NCBI GenBank assembly: GCA_037441225.1
Contig: JBBISU010000020.1
Coordinates: 1 to 50,741 of the forward strand
DNA: 50,741 bases
DNA from: Acidobacteriota bacterium
GTDB taxonomy: Bacteria; Acidobacteriota; Thermoanaerobaculia; UBA2201
Direction of reading: 5' to 3'
Positions 6,584 through 34,750 of the stretch are shown here, one piece after another. Under the pieces are notes generated by a model. That model had not been told where the DNA came from and searched no databases. It saw nothing but the letters and a program-made list of their open reading frames with translations. How positions within the stretch are numbered: position 1 is the first letter of the stretch; every line of letters starts with the position of its first letter. A program made the position numbers and the translations under genes.

Positions 6584-6600
6584 TGGCATAAGTTTTGCAT
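6584..6600 (+). promoter_or_regulatory. Sigma54 (-24/-12) promoter P1
   Basis: TGGCAT-AAGTT-TTGCAT. GG at 6585-6586 and GC at 6597-6598 give the canonical spacing. It sits in the 52-bp gap divergent from the sigma54 activator gene. Confidence 0.7.
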
Positions 6601-6608
6601 AAAAATAA

Positions 6609-6926
6609 TTGATGAATAAAATTTTAATAATTGGAAGGGATTTAAATTTTGTTTGGGCATTAAAAAAATTGCTAAAAGGTGAAAATATTGAAATTGATCA
6701 TATTTTTACAATATCAGAAGCAAAGGTAAGATTTGAAAAAGGTAGATATGATTTAGTTATATTAGATAATTTAAATTTCTATGAGATGGAAATTTTTTTA
6801 AAAATTAAACCAGAAAATTTAAAAATTTTAACAATTGATATAGAAAATTCTAATTTTATTTCAATTCAGAAAGAAAACCCTTATCAAAATATGCTATTAT
6901 ATCTAAGAAATTTTTTAAGTTTTTAA
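6609..6926 (+). CDS. Stand-alone degenerate receiver (pseudo-REC) domain protein
   Basis: CheY-like pattern KILIIGRD...YDLVILDN. The acidic DD pair is replaced by GR and the phospho-acceptor-position Asp is retained. The likely start is ATG 6612. Confidence 0.5.
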   Translation: MMNKILIIGRDLNFVWALKKLLKGENIEIDHIFTISEAKVRFEKGRYDLVILDNLNFYEMEIFLKIKPENLKILTIDIENSNFISIQKENPYQNMLLYLRNFLSF

Positions 6927-6941
6927 AAAGAGAGGTTTCAA

Positions 6942-8579
6942 ATGGCTTTTTTTATAATTTTAATTCTTTATTTTTCTTCTATTGAAAAAAATCACCCTGC
7001 CCTTTTACAGGCAGAAAAAACAAATTGCAAAATTTGCCATATCAAAATACTTGAAGGAAAAATAAAGCATTCTCCAGTTGAAGAAAATTGCATAACCTGC
7101 CATATATATGAAAAAAAAGAAGGAAAGGATATAATAAAATTAACTAAAGCAATACCAGAACTCTGTTTTTCTTGTCATAGGGAACTTTCAGATTATAAAG
7201 AAAAAAAATCTCATATTGTCCTTGAAGAATGCTCAAGTTGCCATAATTTTCATTCATCAAATTTTGAAAAAATTCTTTTAAAAGAACTCCCAACTCTTTG
7301 TGAAGATTGTCATAATTTAAAGGAACTTAAAGAGAAAAGCCATAAAGGACAACCAATTAATGGAACAAATTGCATTGGTTGTCATAATCCCCATTTTTCA
7401 AAAAATGAAAAGTTGCTCAAAGGTAATTTTTTTCATAAACCCTTCATTGATTTGACCTGTGATGCCTGCCATAACAAAACCCTTACAAAAAATGTAAGGT
7501 TAAAAGCAGATGTGAAAACACTTTGTACTGCTTGCCATAGCAATATAGATTTAGAATTAAAGGAAAAAAGTTTGCATATTCCTTTTAGAGATGGAGAATG
7601 TGTAAGATGCCACAATCCTCACTTATCAGAAGAAAAAAATCTTTTAAAATTTAAGGAAAAAGATTTATGTATATCCTGCCATAAAGTTATTATAAATAAA
7701 AAATATATACATGAACCTTTAAAAGATGGCTGCCTTACCTGTCACAATGCCCATTCATCTCCAAAAGAATATCTTATATCAAAGGATATGATGGAAGATG
7801 AAAAAATATCTTCCTTTTGCTTTTCTTGCCATAATATGGATGAAAATTTAAAAAAAGCACATAGGAATTCAAATTTAAAAGAAATAAAATGTTCCATTTG
7901 TCACAATCCCCATTCTTCAGGTAATGAGAAATTTTTAAATGAAAACTCGGTTCATCCTGTCTTTGAAGATTGTGAAAGTTGCCATACCGAAGGAATAAAA
8001 ACAAGAAAAGAAGATCCAGAACTTTGTTTTGAATGCCATAGTGATTTTAAAGAAAAATTATCTTCTTTTAAGTTTAGCCATTCTGCCATTGAAAATGGAT
8101 GCCTCACCTGTCACACCCCTCATATATCAAATTTTAAACCAATTTTAAAAGGAGAACAAAAGAAAATATGCAATGATTGCCACCAAATCGAATTCCCTTT
8201 TGAGCATAAAGTAATTTCTCTTTTAGGTTGCTCTTCCTGCCATTTGCCTCATGGGGGAGAAAATAATAAATTCTTAAAAACAACTGGAAATGAATTATGC
8301 TTATCTTGCCATTTTTTTAAAGAATCAAAGGAAGAAAAAGAATTGGGATTAAAATTTCCAAAAATAAAATTAGATGATAAGATGGAAAAAGGACATCCTA
8401 CAATAAGCCATATTGTAAAAGGAAAAATGATGAAGAAAAAAGGGTTAACCCCACCAGAAAATATGGAAGAAATTTCCTGCCTTTCCTGCCATAATCCCCA
8501 TGGAGGTCAATCAAAGAACCTTTATTCTTTTGGCAAAAGAAACCAAAATGAGTTATGTCAATTGTGTCATCTCAAATGA
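6942..8579 (+). CDS. Multihaem c-type cytochrome with 21 CXXCH motifs (c7-type triheme repeat polymer-like), probably periplasmic
   Basis: I counted 21 CXXCH in 545 aa. They recur in a period of three, with many in the form CxxCHNPH. Hydrophobic N-terminus. Confidence 0.9.
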   Translation: MAFFIILILYFSSIEKNHPALLQAEKTNCKICHIKILEGKIKHSPVEENCITCHIYEKKEGKDIIKLTKAIPELCFSCHRELSDYKEKKSHIVLEECSSCHNFHSSNFEKILLKELPTLCEDCHNLKELKEKSHKGQPINGTNCIGCHNPHFSKNEKLLKGNFFHKPFIDLTCDACHNKTLTKNVRLKADVKTLCTACHSNIDLELKEKSLHIPFRDGECVRCHNPHLSEEKNLLKFKEKDLCISCHKVIINKKYIHEPLKDGCLTCHNAHSSPKEYLISKDMMEDEKISSFCFSCHNMDENLKKAHRNSNLKEIKCSICHNPHSSGNEKFLNENSVHPVFEDCESCHTEGIKTRKEDPELCFECHSDFKEKLSSFKFSHSAIENGCLTCHTPHISNFKPILKGEQKKICNDCHQIEFPFEHKVISLLGCSSCHLPHGGENNKFLKTTGNELCLSCHFFKESKEEKELGLKFPKIKLDDKMEKGHPTISHIVKGKMMKKKGLTPPENMEEISCLSCHNPHGGQSKNLYSFGKRNQNELCQLCHLK

Positions 8580-8589
8580 GAGGTAAAAT

Positions 8590-9597
8590 ATGAAAAAAAT
8601 TTTATTGTTTTTATTTATTGTTTCTTGTGGAACTTCTTCTATAAATGATCAAAAAAAAGAAATAAATATTTTATGGCCACCTCCTCCAGATGAGCCAAAA
8701 ATTAAATTTATAGAAGTTATAAGCTCAAGCAGAGATGTAGAAGGAAAAAAAGAAAAAAGTTTAAAAGATGTATTGTTAGGGATTGAACCTGAAAAGAGTT
8801 CTGTTTTTTTAGAAAGGCCTATGGATATTGCTGTAAATTCAAAGGGGGAGATTTTAGTGGTAGATGCAAAAGCAAAAGGGATCCATGTCTATGATAAAAA
8901 AAATAAAAAATTTAAACTTTATGGCACTTCTGGTATGGGTTCCCTTGCCTGGCCTAACTCAATTGATGTAGATGAAAATGATAATATTTATGTCTCTGAC
9001 CATTCTAAAAAAAAGGTATTTAAATATGATTCATCCGGTAAATTTCTTTTAAGTTTTGGGGACTTTGAAAACCCTGTCGGTGTCTGTGTTGATAATAAAA
9101 ACAAGAGATTGTTTGTTGTAGATTCAAAAAAGCATAATTTAAATTTATTTGATTTTAATGGAAATTTATTAAAGACAATTGGTGAAAGGGGGATAGAAGA
9201 AGGGCAGTTTAATTTTCCAACCTTTTGTGATGTAGATGAAAAAGGGAATATTTATATTGTAGATACTGGCAATGCAAGAGTCCAAATAATTGACGAAAAT
9301 TTTGAAGTTTTAGGTTCCTTTGGATCAATGGGTGTGCATATAGGTCAGTTTACAAGACCAAAAGGAATAGCTGTTGATAAATATGGAATAATTTATGTTG
9401 TTGATGGCGCTTTCAACAATGTTCAAATGTTTAATTCAGAATTACAATTTTTAATGCCTTTTTGTGAAGCAGGAAAAGAAGAAGGAAAATTAAATCTTCC
9501 TGTTGGCATTGAGATAGACAAAGAAGGATATATTTATGTAGCAGATTTTGGAAATGGAAGGATACAAATTTTTAAAGCTTTATATAAAATTTATTAA
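8590..9597 (+). CDS. NHL-repeat beta-propeller lipoprotein
   Basis: Lipobox FIVS-C at residues 10-13. Repeated NHL-type units (e.g. GQFNFPTFCDVDEKGNIYIVDTGNARVQII and GQFTRPKGIAVDKYGIIYVVDGAFNNVQMF). Confidence 0.85.
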   Translation: MKKILLFLFIVSCGTSSINDQKKEINILWPPPPDEPKIKFIEVISSSRDVEGKKEKSLKDVLLGIEPEKSSVFLERPMDIAVNSKGEILVVDAKAKGIHVYDKKNKKFKLYGTSGMGSLAWPNSIDVDENDNIYVSDHSKKKVFKYDSSGKFLLSFGDFENPVGVCVDNKNKRLFVVDSKKHNLNLFDFNGNLLKTIGERGIEEGQFNFPTFCDVDEKGNIYIVDTGNARVQIIDENFEVLGSFGSMGVHIGQFTRPKGIAVDKYGIIYVVDGAFNNVQMFNSELQFLMPFCEAGKEEGKLNLPVGIEIDKEGYIYVADFGNGRIQIFKALYKIY

Positions 9598-9664
9598 AAT
9601 TGGGCAAAAAACCCATTAGATGGGTGAAATAACCCATAATCTTTAAAATTCTCTCAAAATAACT

Positions 9665-9681
9665 TGGCATAAAAATTGCAT
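9665..9681 (+). promoter_or_regulatory. Sigma54 (-24/-12) promoter P2
   Basis: TGGCAT-AAAAA-TTGCAT. A strong AGGAGG Shine-Dalgarno lies at 9705-9710 and the ATG at 9718. Confidence 0.75.
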
Positions 9682-9717
9682 TATTTTTCTAAAACTTTAA
9701 AGAAAGGAGGTTTATAA

Positions 9718-10380
9718 ATGAAAAGATTATTTGCTTTATTTTTTCTAATTACATCTACCCTGGCATTGGCAGTTGTCCAGAACACTCCTCATGATCTGTC
9801 CGTTGGTTCAACTGGTCCCTTTAATCAAGCTGGATTTCCTGATACAAATGTAACAGCCATTTGTGTTTTCTGCCATACTCCTCACCAACCAAGTGGAGTT
9901 ACAACAGATCCTCTATGGAACCACACTCTTTCATCCACTGCTTCATACGGTGTTTATTCAAGTAACACATTAAATGCAACACCAGCTGACATTGGTGGAC
10001 AGCAAACAGTTTCTAATCTTTGTATGTCTTGTCATGATGGAACTGTTGGTGTTGGTTCCCAGTACAATGAACAAAATGGTGTTCCTGCTCCTTCTACTGC
10101 TGCCATAACAATTTTAAACACAAATCCTGCTTACCTTGGAACAGATCTTACAAATGACCATCCAATTAATTTTACTTACGATGCAGCCCTTGCCACTGCT
10201 GATGGTGAATTAAACACACCTGTTTCTACAAGCTGTGTTGATGCTGCTTGTAATGTTCCTTTATTTGGAGGAACTGTTCAGTGTGCTTCTTGTCATGATC
10301 CCCATGACAATACTTTGGCTCCATTTTTAACGCTTACACAAGTTGATAGTGCCCTTTGTACAACTTGCCATCAAAAGTAA
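9718..10380 (+). CDS. Small secreted tetrahaem c-type cytochrome (220 aa), nearly Lys/Arg-free
   Basis: Signal peptide ending in LALA-VV. Four CXXCH motifs (CVFCH, CMSCH, CASCH, CTTCH) and 9 His in total. After the signal peptide there are 0 Arg and only the C-terminal Lys. Thr/Ser/Asn/Gly/Ala-rich. Confidence 0.9.
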   Translation: MKRLFALFFLITSTLALAVVQNTPHDLSVGSTGPFNQAGFPDTNVTAICVFCHTPHQPSGVTTDPLWNHTLSSTASYGVYSSNTLNATPADIGGQQTVSNLCMSCHDGTVGVGSQYNEQNGVPAPSTAAITILNTNPAYLGTDLTNDHPINFTYDAALATADGELNTPVSTSCVDAACNVPLFGGTVQCASCHDPHDNTLAPFLTLTQVDSALCTTCHQK

Positions 10381-12049
10381 GAAGTTTTTTTTTAAATTTG
10401 GGGGTATAATTTTTTTGTACCCCCTTTTATTTTTTTTATTTCCTTTCAATTTAAAAGCGGAAGAGTTTTTTAAATTTTATGGCATCCTTAGCTATGAATA
10501 TAATAAGAGAAATTTTAATCTTTATTCAAAGTCATTGAAAGATGAAGAAATAAAAAACGCTGGTAGGCTTAGTTTAAATTTTAGTAGCTATTTTTGGAAT
10601 AAGAAATTATTGAAATACAATTTGAGTTTTTCAATTGAAAATGGAAAAATTTATAATAATAAAACTTCAGGGAAGTTAAATAATATTGGTTATGGAATAG
10701 AATTAAATTTTCTGCCCCATTCCAAGGATAAATTTTCTTTATTTTTACTCAAGCAAAATTACAATTATAATAAAATTTATGGCTTTGATTATGATAAAAA
10801 AATTGATGGCTATGGAATAGATATGCTTTATAAAAATTTTTATTCTTATTATAAAAAAACAGAGACAACAGTTCCTTTTTTTGAAGAAGATGAAAGGATT
10901 CAGGAAGAAGGGATTATAAAAAAATTATTTAAATTTAGCAATTTTTCTATTTATTCAGAAATAAGAAAAAATTATTATAATTTCAAATATTTTAAGAATT
11001 CACAGGATATAAATTCTTTTTTATCTTATTTCAATAAAACTGGAGAGGATTCAAGTTATAGTTTAAACTTCCTTTTTCAAAATTATAATTATAAAGATGA
11101 AAATTTCGGTTTAAGCCAGAAAAATAATTTTTTAAATTTATCAGGTGTATGGAATAAAAAAATATCAAATAAAACAGATTCAATTTTTACATTAAAAACA
11201 CATAGAAATTTTGAAGAATTTGAAAATTACAACTTGGAAGAAGTACTTAGAATAAGATTATCAAAAAATTTTAGATTGGAAACAATATCTGGGATTTTAA
11301 AGGTTTCTAAGCTAAATCCTTATATTGGTGGTGGCACAATTTATGAAAAACCTTTTTCACATTTTTCATTTTTTTCAAGGGTAGGTTTTCTTTTAAGACA
11401 AAACAAAGAATATGAGGGAAATGAAATTTCTCCTTATGCTAATTTTTCCTTAAATTTTTCAAAAAATAAAACTTCAACTTCCCTTGATTTTAATTATTAT
11501 GGCTTTTCCTATCAACAAAATGAAGCAAAACAATCTGATCTTCCATCTATTTTGGGAGAGTTTTCTTATAAAACTACAAATGATTTTTCTATTAAACATT
11601 CTTTAAGCTGGAATAATTCAGGGATTTATGGATTTTATTTGAAAAATATTTTTAATAAATATGAAAGAGAAAAGATAGAAGGTAATAAAGCAAATTTTAA
11701 ATCTTTTTTAAATCAAATTGATTTCAAAATTTATTCCTTTGCCTTTGGCTTTACTTTTTATAAGGGAGAGGAATGGGATTTTGAAAGGTTTAAAATTTCA
11801 ACTAAAGAAGCCCATATTTCTTTTACCCTTGGAAAAAACATAAGTTTTCAAGGCTCTTATCTTAAAAGATACAAAGAATTTTCCTCAAAAGGAGAAGAAG
11901 AAGAAGGAAACATTCAATTTGTATATCAAATAGGGAAGTTTAGTTTAAGGATAATTGGACAGAAGTTGAGTTATGATATTTTTGAACAAAAAAAGGATAT
12001 AAATTTTATAAGGATTTTACTTTTAAGGAGTTTTGGAAATGGCTTTTAA
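10343..12049 (+). CDS. Predicted outer-membrane beta-barrel (porin-like) protein
   Basis: Signal-like N-terminus (KSKKFFFKFGGIIFLYPLLFFLFPFNLKA-EE). Tyr/Phe/Asn/Ser/Gly-rich sequence with alternating short amphipathic stretches. C-terminus ...RSFGNGF ends in Phe as in OMP beta-signals. The start codon is uncertain: there is no ATG, and TTG 10343 or GTG 10349 overlaps the upstream gene. Confidence 0.6.
   Translation: MIVPFVQLAIKSKKFFFKFGGIIFLYPLLFFLFPFNLKAEEFFKFYGILSYEYNKRNFNLYSKSLKDEEIKNAGRLSLNFSSYFWNKKLLKYNLSFSIENGKIYNNKTSGKLNNIGYGIELNFLPHSKDKFSLFLLKQNYNYNKIYGFDYDKKIDGYGIDMLYKNFYSYYKKTETTVPFFEEDERIQEEGIIKKLFKFSNFSIYSEIRKNYYNFKYFKNSQDINSFLSYFNKTGEDSSYSLNFLFQNYNYKDENFGLSQKNNFLNLSGVWNKKISNKTDSIFTLKTHRNFEEFENYNLEEVLRIRLSKNFRLETISGILKVSKLNPYIGGGTIYEKPFSHFSFFSRVGFLLRQNKEYEGNEISPYANFSLNFSKNKTSTSLDFNYYGFSYQQNEAKQSDLPSILGEFSYKTTNDFSIKHSLSWNNSGIYGFYLKNIFNKYEREKIEGNKANFKSFLNQIDFKIYSFAFGFTFYKGEEWDFERFKISTKEAHISFTLGKNISFQGSYLKRYKEFSSKGEEEEGNIQFVYQIGKFSLRIIGQKLSYDIFEQKKDINFIRILLLRSFGNGF
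10400..10437 (+). terminator. Candidate intrinsic terminator/attenuator downstream of the tetrahaem gene
   Basis: GGGGGTA(10400-10406) pairs with TACCCCC(10418-10424), followed by TTTTATTTTTTTT. It starts 20 nt after the stop codon of the tetrahaem gene. Confidence 0.55.
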
Positions 12050-12899
12050 TTTTTTTATCTTAATATTTTTTAGTATTTTTGAATTTGAAAAGGTCTTAGA
12101 AAGTCCCTATGATTTTAAAGAAAAAAGCTTTTTAAAAAATTTCTTTTTTGGAAAAGGAAATATAGAAAAATTTTCATCCCCTTATTCAATAGTAATTTTT
12201 GGCAAAAATATTGCCATTTGTGATGGTGAAAGGATTTTTTATGTTTCAAAAAATAAAGTTTTGGAAATAATTTTTCCTTTTAAATCTTTTTGTATGGATG
12301 TTGCTTTAAATGATGAGTATATTTTTGCTTCCTTTCCACAAGAAGGGATTGTGGCTTATTATGATTTAAATAAAAAAAATTGGGAAAAGGTTCCTTTTAC
12401 CTTTGAAAAACCAAATGGCTTATATTATGATTATAAAAATAATGAATTATATGTCGTTGATACGCAAAGTCATAAGATTTATAAAGGATATGAAAAAAAT
12501 TTAATCCCTTTTATAACAGATGGTTTAAACTTCCCAATTGATTTAACTATTTCAAGAAATGGGAGGATTTATATAACAGACAGTTTTGACTATGAAGTTG
12601 AGGTAAGGGATGGGGATGGAAATTTTATTTTTTCTTTTGGTAAAGGAGGTAATAAATTTGGGAACTTTCAATCCTTAAGGGGCATTGCAGTTGATGAAGA
12701 TGAAAGAGTATATGTAAGTGATACACAAAGTAGCTGGATACAGGTCTTTTCAAAAGAAGGAAAGCTTTTATATGTCTGGTCTGACAAAAAGATTTCCCAT
12801 CCAAATTTTTTATCTTATGAAAAAGGAATCCTTTATGTCACTGATTTATTTTCAAAATTAATCTTTTTAATTAAAATTAATATACCAGAAGAAAAATGA
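12033..12899 (+). CDS. NHL-repeat beta-propeller protein (exported)
   Basis: Hydrophobic N-terminus. NHL-type units such as GNFQSLRGIAVDEDERVYVSDTQSSWIQVFSKEGK and IYITDSFDYEVEVRDGDGNF. Confidence 0.75.
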   Translation: MEMAFNFFILIFFSIFEFEKVLESPYDFKEKSFLKNFFFGKGNIEKFSSPYSIVIFGKNIAICDGERIFYVSKNKVLEIIFPFKSFCMDVALNDEYIFASFPQEGIVAYYDLNKKNWEKVPFTFEKPNGLYYDYKNNELYVVDTQSHKIYKGYEKNLIPFITDGLNFPIDLTISRNGRIYITDSFDYEVEVRDGDGNFIFSFGKGGNKFGNFQSLRGIAVDEDERVYVSDTQSSWIQVFSKEGKLLYVWSDKKISHPNFLSYEKGILYVTDLFSKLIFLIKINIPEEK

Positions 12900-14389: not shown

Positions 14390-14393
14390 ATGC

Positions 14394-14410
14394 TGGCATA
14401 AGAATTGCAT
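14394..14410 (+). promoter_or_regulatory. Sigma54 (-24/-12) promoter P3
   Basis: TGGCAT-AAGAA-TTGCAT, starting 5 nt after the upstream stop codon and ending 17 nt before ATG 14427. Confidence 0.75.
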
Positions 14411-14426
14411 ATATTTTTATAGAGAT

Positions 14427-24372: not shown

Positions 24373-25505
24373 TGTTATTCTTAATTCTCTTTTCTTTAAT
24401 AGAAGTTGAAGGTTATTTATCTTTAAATGCAATCCAGGGCTTTATAATTGAAAAGGACTCAAAATTTTACCCATTCATAACAAAGCCCTATACTTTATAT
24501 TTAAATTTTAAAAGCCCCAATGAATTAGAAATTGGGGATAAATTAAAAGTATATTTTAAAGAAGAAAAAGGTGTCCCCATTGCTTTTAAAATTGAAAAAT
24601 TAAAAAAGATTTACATAAATCCAAAATTTGAAATAAAAGAAAGTTTTTTTAAAGAAAATTTAGAAAATTATGAATTGGTTGATTTAAGGGAAGAAGAAGA
24701 ATTTCTCAAAATCAACATTCCTTCTTCAAAAAGAGAGTTTATAAAGAACAATAAAGAAATTATTTTTTATTGCAATGATTATTATGATGAAAAATGTATA
24801 GAAAAATTTCAAAATATTTTAATTAAAGAAAAAGGAAATTTTTTATTTTTTCAAGGTGGGATAAAAGAATGGAATAAAAGGGGAAATTACTTTTATACAG
24901 AGCCAGAAATTTTTTTAAAAAAAGAAAAGATTAATTTTTATCTGGTAGATTTGAGAAATAAGGAAGAAAGGGAAAAGGGGGTTGTGCCTTTTTCTTTTTA
25001 TGCAAATCTGGAAGAAATGGACTGGAGGGATTTTTCATCAGAAGAAGGAATGGTTCCTCTTTTGTTTATAGGAAGAGATGAAAATGATGAAAGACCTGTA
25101 AAAGCAGCAAAAAAGGTTTTAAAGTGGCGATATGATAATAATAAAAATGGATATGTTTCTATTTTAAAGGGCGGGATTGAAGGACTTAAAAAAATTGGCT
25201 TTAATTTAGAAAAAAAAGAAATTTTGTCCTTTAAAGTTTCAAATTTAAAAAAGGAAGGGGAAATTAAATTAGAAGAATTAAAAAAAGAAAATTATTTTGT
25301 TGATTTAAGAGATGAAGGGGATGCAAATTTCAAATCTGCAAAAAATTTAAAACTTTCTGAGTTGGATGAAAAAATTGAAATGCTTCCAAAAGATAAAGAA
25401 ATAATCTTATTTTGTTATGAAGGAAAAAGGGCAGAAGTAGCTTTTCATATTTTAAAAAAATTGGGTTTTGATGTAAAATTTATAAATGAACCACCATTTT
25501 TTTAA
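24369..25505 (+). CDS. Exported protein with three rhodanese-homology domains (only the last has a catalytic-type Cys loop)
   Basis: Hydrophobic N-terminus. Three units of the type Y.LVDLR...E...G.IP..... The third carries the loop CYEGKRA (Cys at 25413-25415). ATG 24372 overlaps the TGA of the giant cytochrome gene. Confidence 0.75.
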   Translation: MMLFLILFSLIEVEGYLSLNAIQGFIIEKDSKFYPFITKPYTLYLNFKSPNELEIGDKLKVYFKEEKGVPIAFKIEKLKKIYINPKFEIKESFFKENLENYELVDLREEEEFLKINIPSSKREFIKNNKEIIFYCNDYYDEKCIEKFQNILIKEKGNFLFFQGGIKEWNKRGNYFYTEPEIFLKKEKINFYLVDLRNKEEREKGVVPFSFYANLEEMDWRDFSSEEGMVPLLFIGRDENDERPVKAAKKVLKWRYDNNKNGYVSILKGGIEGLKKIGFNLEKKEILSFKVSNLKKEGEIKLEELKKENYFVDLRDEGDANFKSAKNLKLSELDEKIEMLPKDKEIILFCYEGKRAEVAFHILKKLGFDVKFINEPPFF

Positions 25506-25980
25506 AATCTTTTTCATAATTTTAATATTTTTTATAATTTCTCTTTTCTTATTTGATAAGGACTGGCTTTTGCAGTTAAATTTTTTGAAAGAGAAAGAAA
25601 AAAAAGAAATAGAAAAAACAATTGAAATTTATAATAAAATTTTAATGGACTTTTATGCTACAAGTGGGAATCCATCTTTAATAGATGAAGTTCCAGCAGC
25701 AAAAATTTTAAAACATGAAATCTTTAAAGAAATTGGATTTTTATCTATGAATGAAAGGGTTCTTGTATGGGATCTGGCAAGTATTAAAATTGAAAAAATA
25801 AGTTTTTATGGATTTAAAAAAGCAAAGGCAAGGGTTTTAGAAGAATGGAACTATCAATTTCAGGATTTATATACAAGAAAGCCCAGTTCAGAAGTAAGGG
25901 GAAAAACAGTTAAAATAGAATATGATTTAAGAAAAGTAAAAAATAAATGGATAATTTTTGAATGGTTTCCATTAAGTTAG
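25486..25980 (+). CDS. Membrane-anchored protein of unknown function (paralogue of 26768-27277)
   Basis: One N-terminal TM helix and a ~130-aa soluble domain. Collinear with the 169-aa protein (I..YN..L...Y...G......PA...LK.E........EEW). Confidence 0.55.
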   Translation: MNHHFFKIFFIILIFFIISLFLFDKDWLLQLNFLKEKEKKEIEKTIEIYNKILMDFYATSGNPSLIDEVPAAKILKHEIFKEIGFLSMNERVLVWDLASIKIEKISFYGFKKAKARVLEEWNYQFQDLYTRKPSSEVRGKTVKIEYDLRKVKNKWIIFEWFPLS

Positions 25981-26771
25981 CACTTTTTTTTATAATTTTT
26001 TTATTTTCAATTTTTAATTATTTTATAAATAAAAATTTTTGGTCTTTAACTTACATTAAAACTTTTTTAATTTTTTATTTTTTATTTATTTTTATATTTT
26101 TACTTTCATCAATCTTAAAGTATTTGAAAAGAGAAAGAATAGCAGGACTTTTTAACCTTTCCATCTTTTTCTTTTCTTCTTTTATTTTTCTTTCTCTATC
26201 CTATTATAACAAAATTGAATTAAGCATTGGAGAAGGTGAAGGTTCTTATAACTTAGAAAAAAATGAAGGGGGGTTTCTTTCGAAAGGAAAAAATTATGAT
26301 TTAAATTTAAAAGAAATTAATGAAAAATCAATAAAGATTTTTTTTGAAAAAAAAGAATTTAATTTAAAAGAAAAGGAAGGAATTTATTTTAAAGATAAAT
26401 ATATTAAATTGAAAGGAATTTTTAAAAGTATTGAGATAAATGTATTTCAAGAAGGGGGATATAGCGAAGGAGTTTTTTTTAAATTAAAAGATGAAGAAAA
26501 CTCTTACTTTCCTTTATCAACCTTGCCATATAGAATTTATATTAAAAATATAAAAGATTTTTATAAGATAAAAATATATAGGAATAAAACTCAAGTTTTA
26601 GAAAAAGAAATTAAATTAGGTGAAATTTTTCCTTTTGATTTTTTAAACCTTAAATTAAATGAAGGTCCCCTTTGGGCTTTGTTAGAGGTAAAAAATTATT
26701 TTTCTTTTTTTTATTTTTTAATACCTTTGATATTTTTTATCCTTTCTTTTTATGATAAACTAAAAAAATGA
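25962..26771 (+). CDS. Polytopic membrane protein, possibly a shortened and degenerate Ccs1/ResB-like protein
   Basis: N-terminal TM helices, a soluble loop starting with SIGEGEG (compare VGEGEE in the 386-aa ResB-like protein) and a C-terminal TM helix. It lacks the TM His seen in both ResB-like proteins (HFSF). Confidence 0.35.
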   Translation: MVSIKLALFFIIFLFSIFNYFINKNFWSLTYIKTFLIFYFLFIFIFLLSSILKYLKRERIAGLFNLSIFFFSSFIFLSLSYYNKIELSIGEGEGSYNLEKNEGGFLSKGKNYDLNLKEINEKSIKIFFEKKEFNLKEKEGIYFKDKYIKLKGIFKSIEINVFQEGGYSEGVFFKLKDEENSYFPLSTLPYRIYIKNIKDFYKIKIYRNKTQVLEKEIKLGEIFPFDFLNLKLNEGPLWALLEVKNYFSFFYFLIPLIFFILSFYDKLKK

Positions 26772-27277
26772 AAGATTTAATTTTAATAATTTTAATTTCA
26801 ACAATTTTATTTTTTACCCTTGCAATAATTGAGGACTGGCAAAACTTTAAATTCCTTTTTTTTAAGCAAGAAATAAAAAAATTGGAATTTTCAGATGAAA
26901 TTTTAAAAACAATAGATAAATACAATACATTATTAGAGCATATATACAGATTTGAAGGTGATGAAAGGTTCCTCCAGCGCCTTCCTGCAAGTGATTTTTT
27001 AAAAGAAGAAACCTTAGAAGATTTATACTATTTAAATTCTTACCAAATAATACAGGAAATTAAATTAAAAAAGATAGAGATTTTAAAGAAAAATTTATTA
27101 AATGAAAACCAGGCAATTGTATCAACCTTAGAAGAATGGGAAATTTTTTATAAAGATAAAACTGGCCATCCCCTTCAAAAAAAGCCAATGATTTTTTCTT
27201 TAAACAATGATTATTATTTAAGGAAAGGGATTTCAGGATGGCTTATAGAAAAAATTGAAATTCCTGATGAAATTTAA
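26768..27277 (+). CDS. Membrane-anchored protein of unknown function (paralogue of 25486-25980)
   Basis: Same architecture and collinear conserved positions as the 164-aa protein. It overlaps both neighbouring genes. Confidence 0.55.
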   Translation: MKDLILIILISTILFFTLAIIEDWQNFKFLFFKQEIKKLEFSDEILKTIDKYNTLLEHIYRFEGDERFLQRLPASDFLKEETLEDLYYLNSYQIIQEIKLKKIEILKKNLLNENQAIVSTLEEWEIFYKDKTGHPLQKKPMIFSLNNDYYLRKGISGWLIEKIEIPDEI

Positions 27278-28508
27278 AAAAATATTTTTTTCTTTAAAAT
27301 TTTCTGCTATCTTAATTTTTCTTTTGGTTTTTTTTCTTTTTTTAAATGTCTTTTTGCCTCAAGAAAGAGTCCTTGGAAAAGAAAAAATCAAAGAAATTGT
27401 AGGAGAAAATAGCTTCTTAAAATTCTTTTTTTACAAACTAAATTTTAAAGATATAACCTCATCGCCATTATTTTTTCTTATTTTATTACTCTTTTATCTA
27501 CAGCTAATTTTTTTTATTTTCAGATATTTTAAGTTAACATTAAAAAGGATAAAAATTAAAGAACCAAATTTTAAAAATTGGAAATCTTTAAAAATAAAAG
27601 GAGAGATAGAAGAAATAAAGAATTTTTTAAAAGAAAAGAGCTGGAAAGAATTTCAAATAAAAGAAAATAAATTATATTATGTTATAAATGAACTTTCCCC
27701 TTTAGGGTTTTTATTTTTTCATTTTTCTTTCCTCTTATATTTGTTGAGTGGATTTTTGTTATATTATACAAGATCTGAAAAGGAATTCTTTTTAGCTTTG
27801 AATCAGACAGTTTCACTGGAAGATGAAAGCTGGGTTTTGCAAAAGAGAAAACCAAAGATAAAAGAAAGTTTAAAAAACCTTAAAGTTTATTTAAAAAATG
27901 TAAATTTAAATCTATATAAGGAAGAACCTCTTTTATTTAAAACAGAAATAGTTTTATGGCATAATAACAAAATGATTAATGGAAATGCTGAAATAAATAA
28001 ACCTTTTAAGTATAAAACTTTAAAAGTTTATCCAGTTTTTCAAGATGATGCTTTTTTAATTCAAGTGGAAGATAAAGAGGGCTATATAATTGAAAAACCA
28101 ATTATTTTTTCTAATTGTTCAAAAAAAATTGGCAGTGCCTATAGAATTTTGGATAAAATAGAAGGAGAAATTGGATGTGAAAAAGTGCCTTATTTAAATT
28201 TATCTTACAATGGAAAAAAAGAAAAACTCCAGATGATAGAAGGAAGGGAAATAAATTTTGGTGACATAAGAGTAAAAATAATAAAAAAAGTTCCTTGGGT
28301 AAAATTTAGGGCAATAAATGAGTCAGGTTCCTTTCCATTATTTCTTGGTTTTATTTTAAGTATTTTAGGTCTCATCTTTAGATTTCTTTTCCCAAATAGA
28401 GAAATTGTTATATCAAATTCTTTAATTTACTATAAAGCAGATTATTTCCCTTCTTCTTTGAAAGAATTAATTGAAAAATTTTGTGAGGTGAAAAATGGAG
28501 CTGGTTGA
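27255..28508 (+). CDS. resB: Cytochrome c biogenesis System II protein Ccs1/ResB (copy 1)
   Basis: ResB-like N-terminus (FSLKFSAILIFLLVFFLFLNVFLPQ), a TM helix with His (FFHFSFLLYLLSG), a large soluble loop and a C-terminal TM helix. It directly precedes ccsA. Confidence 0.7.
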   Translation: MKFLMKFKKIFFSLKFSAILIFLLVFFLFLNVFLPQERVLGKEKIKEIVGENSFLKFFFYKLNFKDITSSPLFFLILLLFYLQLIFFIFRYFKLTLKRIKIKEPNFKNWKSLKIKGEIEEIKNFLKEKSWKEFQIKENKLYYVINELSPLGFLFFHFSFLLYLLSGFLLYYTRSEKEFFLALNQTVSLEDESWVLQKRKPKIKESLKNLKVYLKNVNLNLYKEEPLLFKTEIVLWHNNKMINGNAEINKPFKYKTLKVYPVFQDDAFLIQVEDKEGYIIEKPIIFSNCSKKIGSAYRILDKIEGEIGCEKVPYLNLSYNGKKEKLQMIEGREINFGDIRVKIIKKVPWVKFRAINESGSFPLFLGFILSILGLIFRFLFPNREIVISNSLIYYKADYFPSSLKELIEKFCEVKNGAG

Positions 28509-29277
28509 AGTTTTATCTTTTTATATTTCCCTTTTTCTTTATTTATTTTCAAATATTTATGGTTATTTTAATTATTTTTTTAAAAAAGATTTTAATTTTA
28601 AGAGAATTTATAAAATTACTCTTTTAGCATTCTTTTTTCATTTCTTTACAATAATTTTTAGAACAATCCTTACAAAACATATACCAGTAATAGGAAACTA
28701 TGAAAATATTTTAATGGGTTCTTTCTTTCTTGTAATATTGATTTTCTTTTTCTTTAGGAAAGAAAAATGGTTTTTGCCTTTTCTTTTTAGCTTATCTTTA
28801 AATATTATATTATTAGGTATGGCAATCTTTGCAGATCCTGAAAAAAAACCCTTATTTGCTGCTTTAAAATCCTTCTGGCTTTATATCCATATCCTCTTTG
28901 CCTGGTTTGCTTATGGTTCATTTACAGTAGCAGCAGGGGTAAGTATTACTTATCTTATAAAAAAGGAAGAGTCCTTAGAAGAGTTAATTTTTAAATTAAC
29001 TGCATTTGGGCTTGTGACAGATGCTTTAATGATAATTGCTGGTTCAATTTGGGCAAAGGATTTATGGGGTTCTTATTGGTCCTGGGATCCTGTTGAAACC
29101 TGGTCATTGCTTTCCTTTTTATTATATGGCTTAATATTACACCTTAAAATTACTTTGAAAATAAAAAGAAAAACCTTTGCTTATTTGATTATCTTTTCCC
29201 TCATAACAGTTTTAATTTCTTTTTGGGGTGTAAACTTTTTTATGGAAAAAAGTTTGCATATTTTTAATGTAGGTTAA
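28495..29277 (+). CDS. ccsA: Cytochrome c assembly protein CcsA/ResC (canonical WWD haem-handling motif)
   Basis: Trp-rich motif WAKDLWGSYWSWDPVETWS at 29050-29103, with flanking conserved His residues. Confidence 0.9.
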   Translation: MELVEVLSFYISLFLYLFSNIYGYFNYFFKKDFNFKRIYKITLLAFFFHFFTIIFRTILTKHIPVIGNYENILMGSFFLVILIFFFFRKEKWFLPFLFSLSLNIILLGMAIFADPEKKPLFAALKSFWLYIHILFAWFAYGSFTVAAGVSITYLIKKEESLEELIFKLTAFGLVTDALMIIAGSIWAKDLWGSYWSWDPVETWSLLSFLLYGLILHLKITLKIKRKTFAYLIIFSLITVLISFWGVNFFMEKSLHIFNVG

Positions 29278-29278
29278 A

Positions 29279-30439
29279 ATGTTAAATAGAATTTATAATT
29301 TTATTTCTTCCTTTAAATTATCAATATTTTTAACTATATCCTGTGCCCTTTATTACATTTTTTTATCAATCTGGTCCTTAAAATCACCTTCCATTGTAAT
29401 TCAAAATATATCTAAAATGCTTCCCTTTAAACTGGTATATACTTTTTTACTTATAAATACATTTTTTTGTTTAACTAAAAGGCTTCCAGAACTTTTAAAA
29501 AGCACATCAAAAAATTTAATTTATTTGCCTGAAAACTATGACTGGATTAAGGAAAGAAGAGATGGTAAGATAAAAGAAGGTTTTAAGGTTAAAAAAAGAT
29601 TTTCATCCCTTGGAACAATTTTTTTGCATTTTTCTTTCTTTTTTCTGGCATTGGGATTTTATTTATCCAATCAATCCCACACAACAGGAAAATTTTTAGT
29701 AGGAGAAGGAGAAGAGCTCCTTGTAAATAATGATGAAATAGAAAAGGTTTCACAGCCAAAGCCATTATTTAATGAGTTTCCAGATTTTAAAATAAAATTA
29801 AATAAAATAATTTATAAATTTTGGGGTGAAAAACTCTTATTTAGAGAACTTGAAGGAAAAGGAAAAATAGATGGAAAGGATTTTTCAATAAAGATAAATA
29901 AAATATATCCCTTAAATTTATATAATTTTATAAGAATAACTTCTTTTGGCTATGCTCCATCATACTTACTTTTAATAGAAAATTATCCAAAACCCTTAGA
30001 AGAAGGAGTCATAAAAATTTTTCTTTTTCCTCCTGGTACAAAAAGCTTTTTTAAAACAAAACACTTCCCCCATAAAATTTATTTATCCTTATATCCTGAC
30101 TTTTATGAAGAAAATGGGATTTTCAAAAGCAAATCAATGGAGCCAAAAAATCCAAAAATTTTAATTCAAGTTTATAGAAATAAGGTATTTTTGATGGAAA
30201 AATTAATAAATTTAGGGGATTTAATAAAAATAGAAGAATTTTCAATTGACTTTTTAAATTTATTTCCAATAATAGAAGTGGAAATTGTTCAAGACAAAGG
30301 ATTTTTAATAATATTATTTTCTTTTCTTTTAATTTTAGCTGGCTTACTTTTAAGGTTTTCAGGTAAAAGGGGAGAGATATTGATAAGAAAGGAAGATGGG
30401 GTATATAAAATTTATGGAAAAAATGTAAGGGAGTTTTAA
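29279..30439 (+). CDS. resB: Cytochrome c biogenesis System II protein Ccs1/ResB (copy 2)
   Basis: ResB-like N-terminus (FKLSIFLTISCALYYIFLSIW), a TM His (IFLHFSFFFLALG), a soluble loop and a C-terminal TM helix. It directly precedes the second ccsA-like gene. Confidence 0.65.
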   Translation: MLNRIYNFISSFKLSIFLTISCALYYIFLSIWSLKSPSIVIQNISKMLPFKLVYTFLLINTFFCLTKRLPELLKSTSKNLIYLPENYDWIKERRDGKIKEGFKVKKRFSSLGTIFLHFSFFFLALGFYLSNQSHTTGKFLVGEGEELLVNNDEIEKVSQPKPLFNEFPDFKIKLNKIIYKFWGEKLLFRELEGKGKIDGKDFSIKINKIYPLNLYNFIRITSFGYAPSYLLLIENYPKPLEEGVIKIFLFPPGTKSFFKTKHFPHKIYLSLYPDFYEENGIFKSKSMEPKNPKILIQVYRNKVFLMEKLINLGDLIKIEEFSIDFLNLFPIIEVEIVQDKGFLIILFSFLLILAGLLLRFSGKRGEILIRKEDGVYKIYGKNVREF

Positions 30440-31228
30440 ATGCCTGAATCAAAAATATTTTTATATTTTAGAATTTTTTCTATTTTTTTAAACATCTTTT
30501 CAATATTCTTATTTTTTACAATTAAAGATATAAAAAAGAAAAATCTAATAGGACTCCTAAACTGGCTTTTTTTAATTTTTTTATGGTTTGGGCGACTTTT
30601 TACATCCAAACATTTTCCTTTTTTTGGTGCTTATGAATCCTCTTTAACAATCCTTTTTTTTACAGGAATAATTTTGCTATATTTTAACTTAAAAGAAAAA
30701 CTTCCTTCCTTTTATTTTTACCCCTTCCTATCTTTAGCATTTTTAATCCATTCAGTTTTTTATTCTAAAAATATATGGGCTATGACAATTTCTGAAAAAA
30801 GCATAATAGTATATATACATTTAATTTTTGCTTATCTTTCTTTTGGTTTGAATTTTTTAATCTTTTCATTTTCAATTTTAAAATTAAATAAAAAAGAAAT
30901 AAATTTTTCAATTATAAATAATTTATTAGTTTTTTATTTTTTTTACACTTCAATGCTAATTTTTGGTTTTTTTTATAGATTCTTGCTTTTTGGAAAAGTT
31001 GTTTCTTTTGATCCTGTTGAAACAATACATCTTTCAATGTTTTTGATTTATACAACATTAATTCATATCTCTTATTTTAAAAAGTGGAATGAAGAAAGAA
31101 TAGCAAAATATCAAATCTTTTGTTTTATTTTGTTTTTAATTTCCTATAGAATAATCCTATTTTTCCCTCCAGAGGCAACATATCATATAATAGACATAGA
31201 ATTAAGGATGCATATAATCCCAAAATAA
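30440..31228 (+). CDS. Divergent CcsA-like protein lacking all Trp residues of the WWD motif
   Basis: Same length and TM layout as CcsA, with DPVET conserved. The motif reads YRFLLFGKVVSFDPVETIHL (30974-31033) against WAKDLWGSYWSWDPVETWSL. The flanking His residues are retained (KHFP, YIHLIF, LIHISY). Confidence 0.7.
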   Translation: MPESKIFLYFRIFSIFLNIFSIFLFFTIKDIKKKNLIGLLNWLFLIFLWFGRLFTSKHFPFFGAYESSLTILFFTGIILLYFNLKEKLPSFYFYPFLSLAFLIHSVFYSKNIWAMTISEKSIIVYIHLIFAYLSFGLNFLIFSFSILKLNKKEINFSIINNLLVFYFFYTSMLIFGFFYRFLLFGKVVSFDPVETIHLSMFLIYTTLIHISYFKKWNEERIAKYQIFCFILFLISYRIILFFPPEATYHIIDIELRMHIIPK

Positions 31229-31249
31229 TAGAGTGTTATAATTAAGGGT

Positions 31250-31630
31250 ATGAAGAATTTTTTAAAAATGCTTTTAGTTTTAAATAATTATTCCCATGAT
31301 TTTGCAGCTGCTTTTTTTCTTTCAAGTGCTCTTATCTTATTTTTATTAAAAAAGGAACTGGCAAATCCAGATATCCCAAAAGAATTAAAAACTAAAATTT
31401 TTAACATTTTATCAAAAATTGGTTTAATTTCTTTTTTCTGGATAATTTTAGCAGGTATTATTAGAACTTATTTTTTTAGAAGCTTTGAATTAAACGAAAG
31501 CATAAAAAAAGGAGAAGTTAATATTTTGATTTTCAAGCACATAATTTTCTTTTTAATTACAATTTTAGGGATTTTTTTATGGAAAAGATTAAGAAAAGAA
31601 ATATATAAAAGCAACTTAAAAGCAAATTAA
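31250..31630 (+). CDS. Small integral membrane protein, unknown function
   Basis: Three or four hydrophobic helices. His residues lie in the first (NNYSHDFAAAFF) and last (FKHIIFFLITIL) helices. No family recognised. Confidence 0.5.
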   Translation: MKNFLKMLLVLNNYSHDFAAAFFLSSALILFLLKKELANPDIPKELKTKIFNILSKIGLISFFWIILAGIIRTYFFRSFELNESIKKGEVNILIFKHIIFFLITILGIFLWKRLRKEIYKSNLKAN

Positions 31631-34438: not shown

Positions 34439-34750
34439 TTAATATTTAATTATTTTTGGCTCCTTTATGGGTTTCCATCTGTGGGAAATAAAACTTTCAA
34501 ATAAATCTTCGCTACTTTTGCTTATAAACTCTTTATAAAAAGGATTTGAAAGCCATTTTTCAATATATTCTTCACTTTCCCATAAAGAAAATACATGATA
34601 TGTATAAGGTTTTCCAATAACTTGACTTGCTTGAAATTCCTTAAGACCTTCAATGATGTTAATATTTTCAAGGGCTTTTTGAAAAATTTGAAGAAATTTT
34701 TTTTCCTTTTCTTTATTTTTTAATGTAATTGTAATTGAAACACCTATCAT
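34439..34750 (-). CDS. Small ABM-like (dimeric alpha+beta barrel) protein
   Basis: 103 aa. The beta-alpha-beta pattern with ...HVFSLWESEEYIEKWLSNPFYKEF... resembles antibiotic-biosynthesis-monooxygenase-fold proteins. Weak call. Confidence 0.4.
   Translation of the reverse strand: MIGVSITITLKNKEKEKKFLQIFQKALENINIIEGLKEFQASQVIGKPYTYHVFSLWESEEYIEKWLSNPFYKEFISKSSEDLFESFISHRWKPIKEPKIIKY

Follow-up and report, generated by a model that had tools for sequence, protein, structure and literature searches.

The 50,741-nucleotide contig JBBISU010000020.1 (here called the window), from a bacterium of the class Thermoanaerobaculia in the phylum Acidobacteriota, carries a block of multihaem cytochrome genes that is probably a three-operon, sigma-54-activated island for extracellular electron transfer, with a core of the OmcE-nanowire or Uet cluster type. 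An earlier sequence-only reading of this DNA had proposed an undescribed extracellular electron-transfer apparatus that combines an outer-membrane barrel and cytochromes with System II maturation genes of its own. The analysis reported here supports such an apparatus, but not the word "undescribed", as the core matches both the published definition of the omcE cluster and the uetA/C/H/I/J plus ccsAB set. The core is already described, and the island is an expanded version of it rather than a new machine. What the lineage has added is a 21-haem wire of tandem MtrA/DmsE type, a third operon with a predicted surface cytochrome of 1965 amino acids (aa), and a second ResB/CcsA pair.

Organisation of the block

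The block comprises 19 plus-strand open reading frames (ORFs) between positions 6609 and 31630 (Table 1), most of which overlap or abut, as had been said of it before, and only two of its internal gaps exceed 21 bp (120 and 37 bp). The earlier count of haem motifs was exact: the 545-aa and 220-aa proteins have 21 and 4 CXXCH motifs, respectively, and no others, the 497-aa protein has 11 CXXCH and 1 CX3CH, the 343-aa protein 4 CXXCH and 1 CX3CH, and the 1965-aa protein 23 CXXCH, 2 CX3CH and 3 CX4CH, which makes 63 CXXCH and 7 CX3CH/CX4CH for the whole island. Pfam and NCBIfam searches recognised two NHL propellers, the propeller core of a 1007-aa protein, a rhodanese and two ResB/CcsA pairs within the island, and a sigma-54 activator and a HAMP histidine kinase on its flanks.

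The proteins also differ in composition. Lys and Glu together make up 2-5% of the OmcE-like, 343-aa and 1965-aa proteins, against 17-28% in nearly all other island proteins and ~11% in the two membrane-embedded CcsA proteins. Such low values suggest that the OmcE-like, 343-aa and 1965-aa proteins are extracellular.

The OmcE-like tetrahaem subunit

The protein that most clearly places the core is the 220-aa tetrahaem cytochrome, which had been counted as a secreted cytochrome and had gone unrecognised as a homologue of the OmcE nanowire subunits of known structure (7TFS, 9YUQ). Its residues 5-220 aligned with residues 12-232 of the OmcE filament of Geobacter sulfurreducens (7TFS_A, E 9.4e-41), and it aligned end to end with chain N of the OmcE bundle of D. 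soudanensis (9YUQ_N, E 1.7e-32), an entry identified by Petersen et al. (bioRxiv 10.1101/2025.10.22.684050). Identity to the solved subunits is 43-44%, and the alignment of the three shows no change at any of the 8 Cys and 8 His by which the four haems are bound. The four CXXCH motifs are accompanied by four further conserved His that complete bis-His ligation, which are the conserved features of the OmcE type (bioRxiv 10.1101/2025.10.22.684050). The gene is the most conserved of the island (82-90% identity, against ~60% for the regulator and 37-74% for the barrel), as would fit a filament subunit whose every surface is an interface, and its product has a Lys+Glu content of only 1.8%. The gene context used by Petersen et al. 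is found here as well, with an NHL lipoprotein gene upstream and the gene for a predicted 28-strand barrel downstream. We predict from these features that the 220-aa protein polymerises into an extracellular filament.

It is also conceivable, though in our view quite improbable, that the protein does not polymerise but remains a single tetrahaem partner, extracellular or periplasmic, of an ordinary porin-cytochrome complex; the island would then be an oversized Mtr-like conduit. A sequence does not reveal whether its protein polymerises, and Petersen et al., noting how widespread OmcE-like tetrahaem cytochromes are, restrict their nanowire candidates by gene context (bioRxiv 10.1101/2025.10.22.684050). 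That context, a barrel together with a propeller lipoprotein, is nevertheless present here, and all four His outside the CXXCH motifs are kept, one of which must coordinate the haem of the neighbouring subunit in the solved filaments. Unusually strong purifying selection on the protein, and a strong promoter that belongs to its gene, also argue against a monomer and for the filament subunit.

To place the subunit among other genomes, the GTDB species genomes were scanned with the OmcE alignment, which gave at least 558 matches, and 80 loci from many phyla were kept, whose ORFs were searched with the proteins of the window. The best matches to the OmcE-like protein in GTDB genomes (55-57% identity) come from metagenome-assembled genomes (MAGs) of Acidobacteriota/Thermoanaerobaculia. 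The MutS of the window likewise has its best match, at 77% identity, in a MAG labelled Thermoanaerobaculia, beyond which identity falls under 50%. A separate observation concerns a tandem pair of OmcE-like genes in Ca. Frackibacter sp. WG13 (locus L027, 9056-10684). Each has five CXXCH motifs, in agreement with the 5-haem "OmcE-like" family put forward by Petersen et al. as a possible new nanowire type (bioRxiv 10.1101/2025.10.22.684050).

The outer-membrane barrel

The 568-aa product of the next gene, earlier read as an outer-membrane beta-barrel, had no Pfam, NCBIfam or PDB sequence match, and structure prediction bears that reading out. A first AlphaFold2 model from five sequences was unusable (pLDDT 50, TM-scores ~0.14) and was replaced by one from ten, the first five plus five remote homologues, which has 28 antiparallel strands and no plug (pLDDT 80.7, pTM 0.68). 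Foldseek searches with this model returned outer-membrane barrels only, the best TM-score being ~0.42, to the 26-strand barrels LptD and MtrB, and the C-terminal residue of the protein is Phe. We therefore regard it, on the strength of the model, as a predicted 28-strand outer-membrane barrel.

Relatives that can be found at sequence level are few: 4 others among 5.8 billion proteins and 13 among 1.84 billion cluster representatives. The barrel alignment gave no match in the GTDB species genomes, where the lineage has no representative genome and the family is too divergent for fixed peptide patterns. An iterative profile search that started from the window barrel and covered 7,414 ORFs recovered exactly one ORF per locus in 57 of the 80 OmcE loci, a pattern that argues against profile drift, and the ORFs at the UetC position of loci with the uet gene order join the same profile family.

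What the barrel does is less certain than what it is. It is quite possible, if somewhat short of likely, that it is an usher-like pore that secretes or anchors the OmcE-like subunits, with the propellers as chaperones and with electrons reaching the filament base from periplasmic cytochromes. In fact, a secretion channel or anchor is the role suggested for the barrel of the omcE cluster, and a porin-like pathway of this kind is favoured in published hypotheses on OmcS and OmcE (bioRxiv 10.1101/2025.10.22.684050). The barrel gene overlaps the OmcE-like gene and has its promoter in common with it, the window has no other secretion system, the modelled barrel lacks a plug domain of its own, and the pore predicted for UetC is ~5 nm wide (bioRxiv 10.1101/2022.05.06.490989). 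Against this stands the constant presence of MtrA-like multihaem cytochromes beside the barrel in the cluster, which is the hallmark of porin-cytochrome conduits. The two roles, secretion pore and electron conduit, are not mutually exclusive.

Cytochromes and propellers of the core

If the barrel is a conduit, its most likely partner is the 11-haem cytochrome encoded two genes downstream. Residues 19-203 of this protein match 7TFS_A (E 1.5e-16) and keep all 16 OmcE ligand positions, and the seven further haems belong to a unit that resembles MtrA (6R2Q_A, E 9e-11). Its C-terminal part also matches the 370-aa, 9-haem cytochrome of the Geobacter omcE locus (1e-18). An OmcE-like domain fused to the MtrA-like cytochrome of the cluster was found in 64 of the 80 loci, outside Desulfuromonadia; the two parts are separate OmcE-like and 7-haem genes in loci L005, L006, L010 and L038, and the 7-haem protein occurs alone, without the OmcE-like domain, in L001 and L004. 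Through its OmcE-like N-terminal domain, the 11-haem protein could join the filament to the cell.

The 21-haem protein had been described as c7-polymer-like, a label that we rejected in favour of a tandem MtrA/DmsE type, given that it passes the cut-off of the DmsE family TIGR03508 (200 bits against 192.2, in six stretches) and matches MtrA (6R2Q_A, E 1.9e-11). Its Lys+Glu content of 23.5% is typical of this genome, and counterparts occur in four Acidobacteriota loci. We propose that it serves as a periplasm-spanning wire.

The claim that the island encodes three NHL propeller proteins, one of them a lipoprotein, held: two were recognised by Pfam and the propeller core of the 1007-aa protein by PF17170 and ScyF-NHL. 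The lipoprotein is orthologous to the 361-aa NHL lipoprotein encoded directly upstream of omcE in Geobacter (1.2e-50) and is of the UetH/I type. Two interruptions in NHL genes were seen elsewhere. The second NHL gene of the window is split into two ORFs in the sister contig L003, and the NHL lipoprotein gene upstream of omcE, a single 361-aa gene in L085 (8338-9423), appears as two fragments of 148 and 143 aa in L086 (8340-9423), so this gene may be disrupted in L086, one of two G. sulfurreducens-like assemblies.

Conservation of the gene order

The association between these genes is widespread. An NHL gene is present in 75 of the 80 loci and lies within 200 bp of an OmcE-like gene in 69 of them; in 59, a cytochrome of 8-12 haems with an OmcE-like N-terminus follows an NHL gene. 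The order NHL, OmcE-like and large haem-free protein was found in 20 loci, and the full order, which continues with a second NHL protein and the 11-haem cytochrome, in 13. Closer to the window, four sister contigs (L001 to L004) have the same barrel family with the same neighbours, L002 repeats the order of the window as far as the giant cytochrome, and L087 to L089 have the remainder, from that cytochrome through the last gene and the kinase.

Comparison with known systems

In its published definition the minimal omcE cluster holds the OmcE subunit, a large beta-barrel, and two each of multihaem cytochromes and beta-propeller lipoproteins; it was reported in five phyla, with Acidobacteriota not included (Petersen et al., bioRxiv 10.1101/2025.10.22.684050). 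The island resembles the omcE cluster of Desulfuromonadia (the GSU0612-0619 region of G. sulfurreducens and D. soudanensis WTL) in its homologous tetrahaem subunit and in the orthologous NHL lipoprotein upstream of it, although its host lies outside the published list of phyla. The G. sulfurreducens omcE locus (L085) encodes ppcA, ResB, CcsA, a 9-haem and an 8-haem cytochrome, the NHL lipoprotein, OmcE and a 752-aa protein with a signal peptide, a C-terminal FF and no Pfam match. It therefore shares with the window a large haem-free outer-membrane protein downstream of the subunit, a ResB/CcsA pair nearby and two multihaem cytochromes, of which the 9-haem one is an orthologue of the C-terminal portion of the 11-haem protein. 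The earlier reading had agreed to yield to a characterised conduit with the same gene order, and for the core the Geobacter order ResB, CcsA, two multihaem cytochromes, NHL, OmcE and large outer-membrane protein is largely that.

There are, however, several differences between the two. The window barrel comes from a different, UetC-like sequence family, the second cytochrome of the window has 21 haems and not 8-9, a glycosylation gene block is missing, and the window goes further with control by sigma-54, a third operon that encodes giant cytochromes, and a divergent second CcsA. In addition, the MtrA-like cytochrome of the window has an OmcE-like N-terminal domain and that of Geobacter does not; an OmcE-like domain in the two Geobacter cluster cytochromes was considered and rejected, as the matches were short and confined to the surroundings of haem motifs. 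Petersen et al. likewise noted that the OmcE operons of Desulfuromonadia encode no OmcE-like initiator or stopper (bioRxiv 10.1101/2025.10.22.684050). What does remain unusual is the 21-haem wire, the divergent second CcsA, the third operon and the giant cytochrome within it, and the OmcE-like domain of the 11-haem protein.

The second relative is the uet cluster of Ca. Tenderia, which encodes a tetrahaem cytochrome (UetA), a prolyl isomerase (UetB), a barrel (UetC) with 28 predicted strands and a predicted pore of ~5 nm, trihaem cytochromes (UetD/E/G), a cupredoxin (UetF), NHL proteins (UetH/I), an undecahaem cytochrome (UetJ) and ccsAB, and which has been proposed to serve electron uptake (bioRxiv 10.1101/2022.05.06.490989). 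The window shares with it the tetrahaem UetA type, the 28-strand UetC-type barrel, two NHL proteins, the undecahaem UetJ type and adjacent System II genes. This match rests on the published description and on three loci with the exact uet gene order (L041, L047 and L062); these three are among the loci with OmcE homologues, the tetrahaem and 11-haem cytochromes and the two NHL proteins of the window are homologous to their corresponding ORFs, and the UetC-position ORFs of L047 and L062 fall in the profile of the window barrel. The two clusters differ in gene order, with the window barrel directly after the tetrahaem gene, and a single 21-haem cytochrome takes the periplasmic place in the window. 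In the literature searched, Uet and OmcE were not discussed together; one review names both, in unrelated passages.

The likeness to Uet raises the question of direction. Electron flow is most likely outward, to Fe(III) or Mn(IV) minerals, humics or partner cells, and the reverse, an uptake of electrons donated by partner cells, cathode-like surfaces, Fe(II) or minerals on the lines suggested for the Uet system of Ca. Tenderia electrophaga, is unlikely but deserves consideration. The parts list of the core matches uetA/C/H/I/J-ccsAB, multihaem wires are reversible in principle, and OmcE-like loci are often met in lineages that oxidise sulfur or iron (Sulfuricella, Sulfurimicrobium, Sedimenticola, Ca. 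Thiodiazotropha, Chlorobiaceae and Magnetococcales). On the other hand, the window encodes a 2-oxoacid:ferredoxin oxidoreductase, methylmalonyl-CoA mutase and B12-radical S-adenosylmethionine (SAM) enzymes, a gene set of anaerobic, fermentative type, and these 50 kb of the genome hold no oxidase, carbon-fixation or reverse-electron-flow genes. The structurally characterised OmcE filaments, moreover, come from metal or electrode reducers. The anaerobic, heterotroph-like neighbour genes mildly favour export.

Two other systems share single features with the island. The PCC3 clusters of Gallionellaceae and other Proteobacteria encode a porin, a ~21-haem periplasmic cytochrome proposed to span that compartment and a huge extracellular cytochrome rich in Thr, Ser, Ala and Gly (He et al. 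2017, PMC5566968; Hoover et al. 2023, PMC9900912), which the 21-haem wire and the 28-motif protein of the window, with its 47% Ser, Thr, Gly, Asn and Ala, resemble in haem number and composition only. PCC3 has not been described with an OmcE-type subunit. The likeness to MtrCAB of Shewanella (6R2Q) lies in the large barrel (26 strands in MtrB, ~28 in the window, Foldseek TM-score 0.42), in haem wires of the MtrA/DmsE family and in modules of the giant cytochrome that resemble MtrC domain II/IV. The window barrel, however, does not belong to the MtrB/PioB sequence family, and the resemblance in fold is generic. No decahaem lipoprotein of the MtrC/OmcA type was found, as no cytochrome in the window shows a lipobox by eye and TIGR03507 stayed far below its cut-off; the extracellular partner would instead be of a polymerising tetrahaem type.

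The osc (omcS-companion) cluster of G. sulfurreducens, attributed to Shen et al. in 2025, reportedly surrounds a nanowire subunit gene with those for a folding helper, a beta-propeller-like protein and channel-like components of the outer membrane. The likeness to the island would be in the logic of a nanowire gene with such companions. OmcS is unrelated in sequence to OmcE, and no cytochrome of the window matched OmcS in the PDB searches.

Sigma-54 control

Sigma-54 control, which had previously been deduced, now has direct support in the sequence. Three exact copies of TGGCAT-N5-TTGCA, close to the -24/-12 consensus TGGCAC-N5-TTGC, lie in the island: P1 precedes the first gene, and P2 and P3 fill its two sizeable internal gaps. 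The position of P1 is kept in L001 (5968), L002 (1803) and L003 (294), that of P2 in L002 (4882), L003 (3366) and L004 (166), and that of P3 in L002 (9664). The same motif occurs within 250 bp upstream of 7 of 83 OmcE-like genes in unrelated loci, where 0.12 would be expected, a ~60-fold enrichment. The three sites thus delimit three transcription units: the first with the receiver-like protein, the 21-haem cytochrome and the NHL lipoprotein, the second from the OmcE-like subunit through the barrel and the second NHL protein to the 11-haem cytochrome, and the third from the 1007-aa protein to the 126-aa membrane protein.

The sequence-only reading had the island bracketed by a sigma-54 activator and a kinase with a haem-c motif, and both genes do flank it. 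Orthologues of the activator adjoin the cluster in L001, L002 and L003; its GAFTGA loop reads GAFTDA. The CXXCH of the kinase is kept in its closest relative, in L087, and absent from the more distant kinase of L001, and we have downgraded the idea of a haem-c sensor kinase accordingly. The 105-aa protein at the start of the first unit, found in the four sister loci only, lacks the acidic DD pocket of receivers (Pfam Response_reg, E 0.097). Beyond the kinase, genes for a BchE-like B12-radical SAM protein and a small ABM-fold protein also stand between regulator and kinase in L001 (2839-4636), and a role in tetrapyrrole or haem modification would be a guess.

The third operon

The third operon is among the additions of this lineage. 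Its first two products, the 1007-aa modular protein (Lys+Glu 11.6%) and the 343-aa cytochrome (Lys+Glu 5.2%, 72% identical in L002), have their counterparts in a single ORF of more than 1,100 aa in two Acidobacteriota MAGs (L006, 2-3364, minus strand; L009, 17-3313, minus strand), a fusion which implies that the two work as a complex. The 343-aa cytochrome is predicted to be the extracellular partner of the 1007-aa protein. The giant 1965-aa cytochrome, for which we predict a surface or extracellular location, matches PF22113 (71 bits), PF09698/TIGR01904 and Big_7 and combines MtrC-like with CX4CH...CXXCH modules; its Lys+Glu content is 4.8%, and orthologues occur in L002 and L089. Neither the giant nor the 343-aa cytochrome has a solved relative in the PDB. 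As a side observation, G+C rises to 0.35-0.39 across 18001-24000, over the giant cytochrome gene, from 0.22-0.31 elsewhere in the window (~29% overall). The rise need not be a sign of recent horizontal transfer; it follows the make-up of the proteins predicted to be extracellular, which are rich in Ser, Thr, Gly, Asn and Ala and poor in Lys and Glu.

The protein that follows had been called a triple rhodanese and presumed to be exported; of the three, two domains were recognised by Pfam and the third is visible by eye only; a single canonical active-site loop (CYEGKRA) was seen by eye in the last domain, and the position of the gene is kept in L089. Next come three small membrane-anchored proteins, whose order is kept in L088 and L089. 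The 164-aa and 169-aa members are paralogues (28% identity, E 5e-09), so the duplicated accessory proteins of the earlier reading are borne out together with its two ResB/CcsA pairs. The first pair is canonical and the second is divergent; the latter is kept in L087 to L089. We suggest that CcsA2 may be a lyase for the seven non-canonical CX3CH/CX4CH sites. The 126-aa membrane protein that closes the block is kept in L087. Outside the island, 7 kb downstream, a gene for a ResA-like thiol-disulfide oxidoreductase is followed by those for an ATP-binding cassette (ABC) transporter ATPase and permease (39026-41442, plus strand); ResA is the apocytochrome-reducing partner of System II.

Table 1. 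Features of the island and its immediate flanks, in window coordinates.
Feature	Position	Strand	Basis or remarks
Sigma-54-dependent response regulator	5219..6556	-	PF00158 (1e-65), PF00072, PF02954; receiver, AAA+ sigma-54 interaction domain, Fis-type helix-turn-helix
Sigma-54 promoter P1, TGGCATAAGTTTTGCA	6584..6599	+	Exact -24/-12 match; lies between the first island gene and the activator gene, which is divergent
105-aa cytoplasmic protein, degenerate receiver-like N-terminal half	6609..6926	+	BLASTP against the receiver of the adjacent regulator: 38% over 50 aa, E 5e-05
21-haem periplasmic cytochrome, tandem MtrA/DmsE type (545 aa)	6942..8579	+	21 CXXCH; Paired_CXXCH_1 in 10 stretches
Six-bladed NHL beta-propeller lipoprotein	8590..9597	+	Lipobox IVSC; Pfam NHL 1e-31; PDB NHL propellers E 1e-45
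Sigma-54 promoter P2, TGGCATAAAAATTGCA	9665..9680	+	Exact match; 120-bp gap, directly 5' of the OmcE-like gene
OmcE/UetA-type tetrahaem cytochrome, predicted extracellular filament subunit	9718..10380	+	Homology to 7TFS_A, 9YUQ_N
568-aa UetC-type outer-membrane beta-barrel (predicted), 28 strands	10343..12049	+	AlphaFold2 model; TTG start; 38-nt overlap with the OmcE-like gene
Second NHL beta-propeller protein	12033..12899	+	Pfam NHL 4e-17
11(+1)-haem UetJ-type cytochrome (497 aa)	12896..14389	+	Fusion of an OmcE-like tetrahaem domain (N-terminal) and an MtrA-like unit with 7 haems
Sigma-54 promoter P3, TGGCATAAGAATTGCA	14394..14409	+	Exact match; 37-bp gap, 5' of transcription unit 3
1007-aa secreted modular protein	14427..17450	+	Ig/cadherin-like repeats, NHL-type six-bladed propeller, FN3-like modules; PF17170, ScyF-NHL
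343-aa cytochrome, 4 CXXCH + 1 CX3CH	17447..18478	+	PF22113 MtrC domain II/IV, 30.1 bits
1965-aa giant cytochrome	18475..24372	+	~600 aa of non-haem FN3/Big_7-like modules, then 23 CXXCH, 2 CX3CH, 3 CX4CH
Multi-domain rhodanese	24369..25505	+	Pfam Rhodanese in 2 stretches; third domain by eye
Three small membrane-anchored proteins (164, 269, 169 aa)	25486..27277	+	Weak ARC6-IMS/NTF2-like match alone, no other family
ResB1/CcsA1, canonical System II cytochrome c synthase pair	27255..29277	+	PF05140, PF01578; WWD motif WGSYWSWDPVETWS, four conserved His
ResB2/CcsA2, divergent second pair	29279..31228	+	Four His kept; WWD tryptophans lost (FGKVVSFDPVETIH in place of WGSYWSWDPVETWS)
126-aa membrane protein, last gene of the block	31250..31630	+	Three hydrophobic helices by eye; weak CopD/MnhB-like similarity
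HAMP histidine kinase, one CXXCH in periplasmic loop	31627..33009	-	Pfam
BchE-like B12-radical SAM protein and small ABM-fold protein	32996..34750	-	TIGR02026 385 bits (below cut-off); PF03992

A possible mechanism and what weighs against it

If the island is an expanded OmcE/Uet-type machine, the kinase and the sigma-54 activator would switch on all three operons, and the two ResB/CcsA pairs would load the ~70 haems, the divergent second pair possibly serving the CX3CH/CX4CH sites. The 21-haem protein would bridge the periplasm, fed by an inner-membrane quinol oxidase encoded outside the window, while in the outer membrane the barrel would house a cytochrome, for which the MtrA-like part of the 11-haem protein is the likeliest candidate. 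That protein could dock, by homotypic contact of its OmcE-like domain, on polymerised subunits and thereby give a continuous haem path into the filament, and the NHL propellers would be periplasmic scaffolds or chaperones. From the third operon, the giant surface cytochrome and the propeller-Ig protein with its cytochrome partner would provide extra terminal contact surfaces.

Several observations weigh against this picture. The first reading had already remarked that the island shows no quinol dehydrogenase, and the window as a whole encodes none for the inner membrane. Nor does any of its ORFs of 100 aa or more carry the motif WX3HX13H, two copies of which mark the defining inner-membrane protein of PCC3 (~300 aa, five helices; PMC9900912; PMC5566968), and a di-haem-b membrane protein of that type is thus absent from the window. 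The window likewise encodes no secretion system for the extracellular proteins and, among the Uet components, no rotamase (UetB), stand-alone trihaem cytochrome (UetD/E/G) or cupredoxin (UetF), and Uet itself was proposed for electron uptake, in an aerobic autotroph. The barrel model was built on 10 sequences only, and the window barrel shows no similarity to the Geobacter 752-aa protein in profile-profile comparison, with iterative searches from both sides never joining, so we do not claim the two as homologues. The composition of the 11-haem protein is ordinary and periplasm-like (Lys+Glu 19%), so that its OmcE-like domain may lie in the periplasm instead of on the cell surface. As a marker of compartment for this protein, however, composition is a weak hint only, for the contrast with the subunit is strong in this genome and small across the other loci (charged residues 12.4% in the subunit and 14.4% in the OmcE-like domain). 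Finally, polymerisation, localisation and direction of flow are all inferred for this lineage.

Setting of the island in the genome

The genes around the block contain some hints of its history. The regulator and the island sit entire between the beta (4368-5219) and alpha (34761-36431) genes of a 2-oxoacid:acceptor oxidoreductase, which lie 29.5 kb apart on the same (minus) strand, and the stop of the sigma-54 regulator gene overlaps the start of the beta gene. The two genes of such two-subunit enzymes are normally adjacent, and their separation suggests that the block is an old insertion or rearrangement into that operon. Scans for tRNA genes and Rfam families gave no match, and the block has neither an integrase nor a tRNA gene that would mark it as mobile.

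Further away, a second B12-radical SAM protein (HpnJ/BchE-like, below cut-offs), a FabF-like ketoacyl synthase (KAS) and a truncated KAS-like ORF (47292-50702, plus strand) may form a lipid-modification cassette. Near the other end of the window (243-2427, minus strand), an N6/N4 DNA methylase gene adjoins that of a 250-aa protein with no family match, and the two could be a restriction-modification pair.

What the island may mean

The island is a compact version of the OmcE/Uet machinery, with regulator, promoters, maturation genes, periplasmic wire, barrel, subunit and subunit-like adaptor together, and it represents an OmcE-type cluster in a phylum not yet listed for such clusters. It also links two literatures, that on Uet, which concerns electron uptake, and that on OmcE, which concerns electron export. 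A smaller lead comes from the maturation genes, as a CcsA paralogue without the tryptophan-rich motif, standing beside CX3CH/CX4CH cytochromes, may point to dedicated haem lyases.

The field openly acknowledges that it lacks an account of how cytochrome nanowires are exported, attached to the cell and supplied with electrons (bioRxiv 10.1101/2025.10.22.684050). The island offers two candidates for the junction between filament and cell, namely the barrel family found beside OmcE homologues in most loci examined and the OmcE-like domain carried by an MtrA-like cytochrome. More tentatively, and with more doubt than confidence, we suggest that the Uet and OmcE clusters are one ancient machine and that the UetJ-type undecahaem cytochrome (12896-14389) is the missing root of the nanowire. 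If this were true, the OmcE-like domain of the 11-haem protein would be a pseudo-subunit within the filament and its 7-haem tail would run through the barrel to the 21-haem wire, giving an unbroken chain of haems from the face of the inner membrane to micrometres outside the cell.

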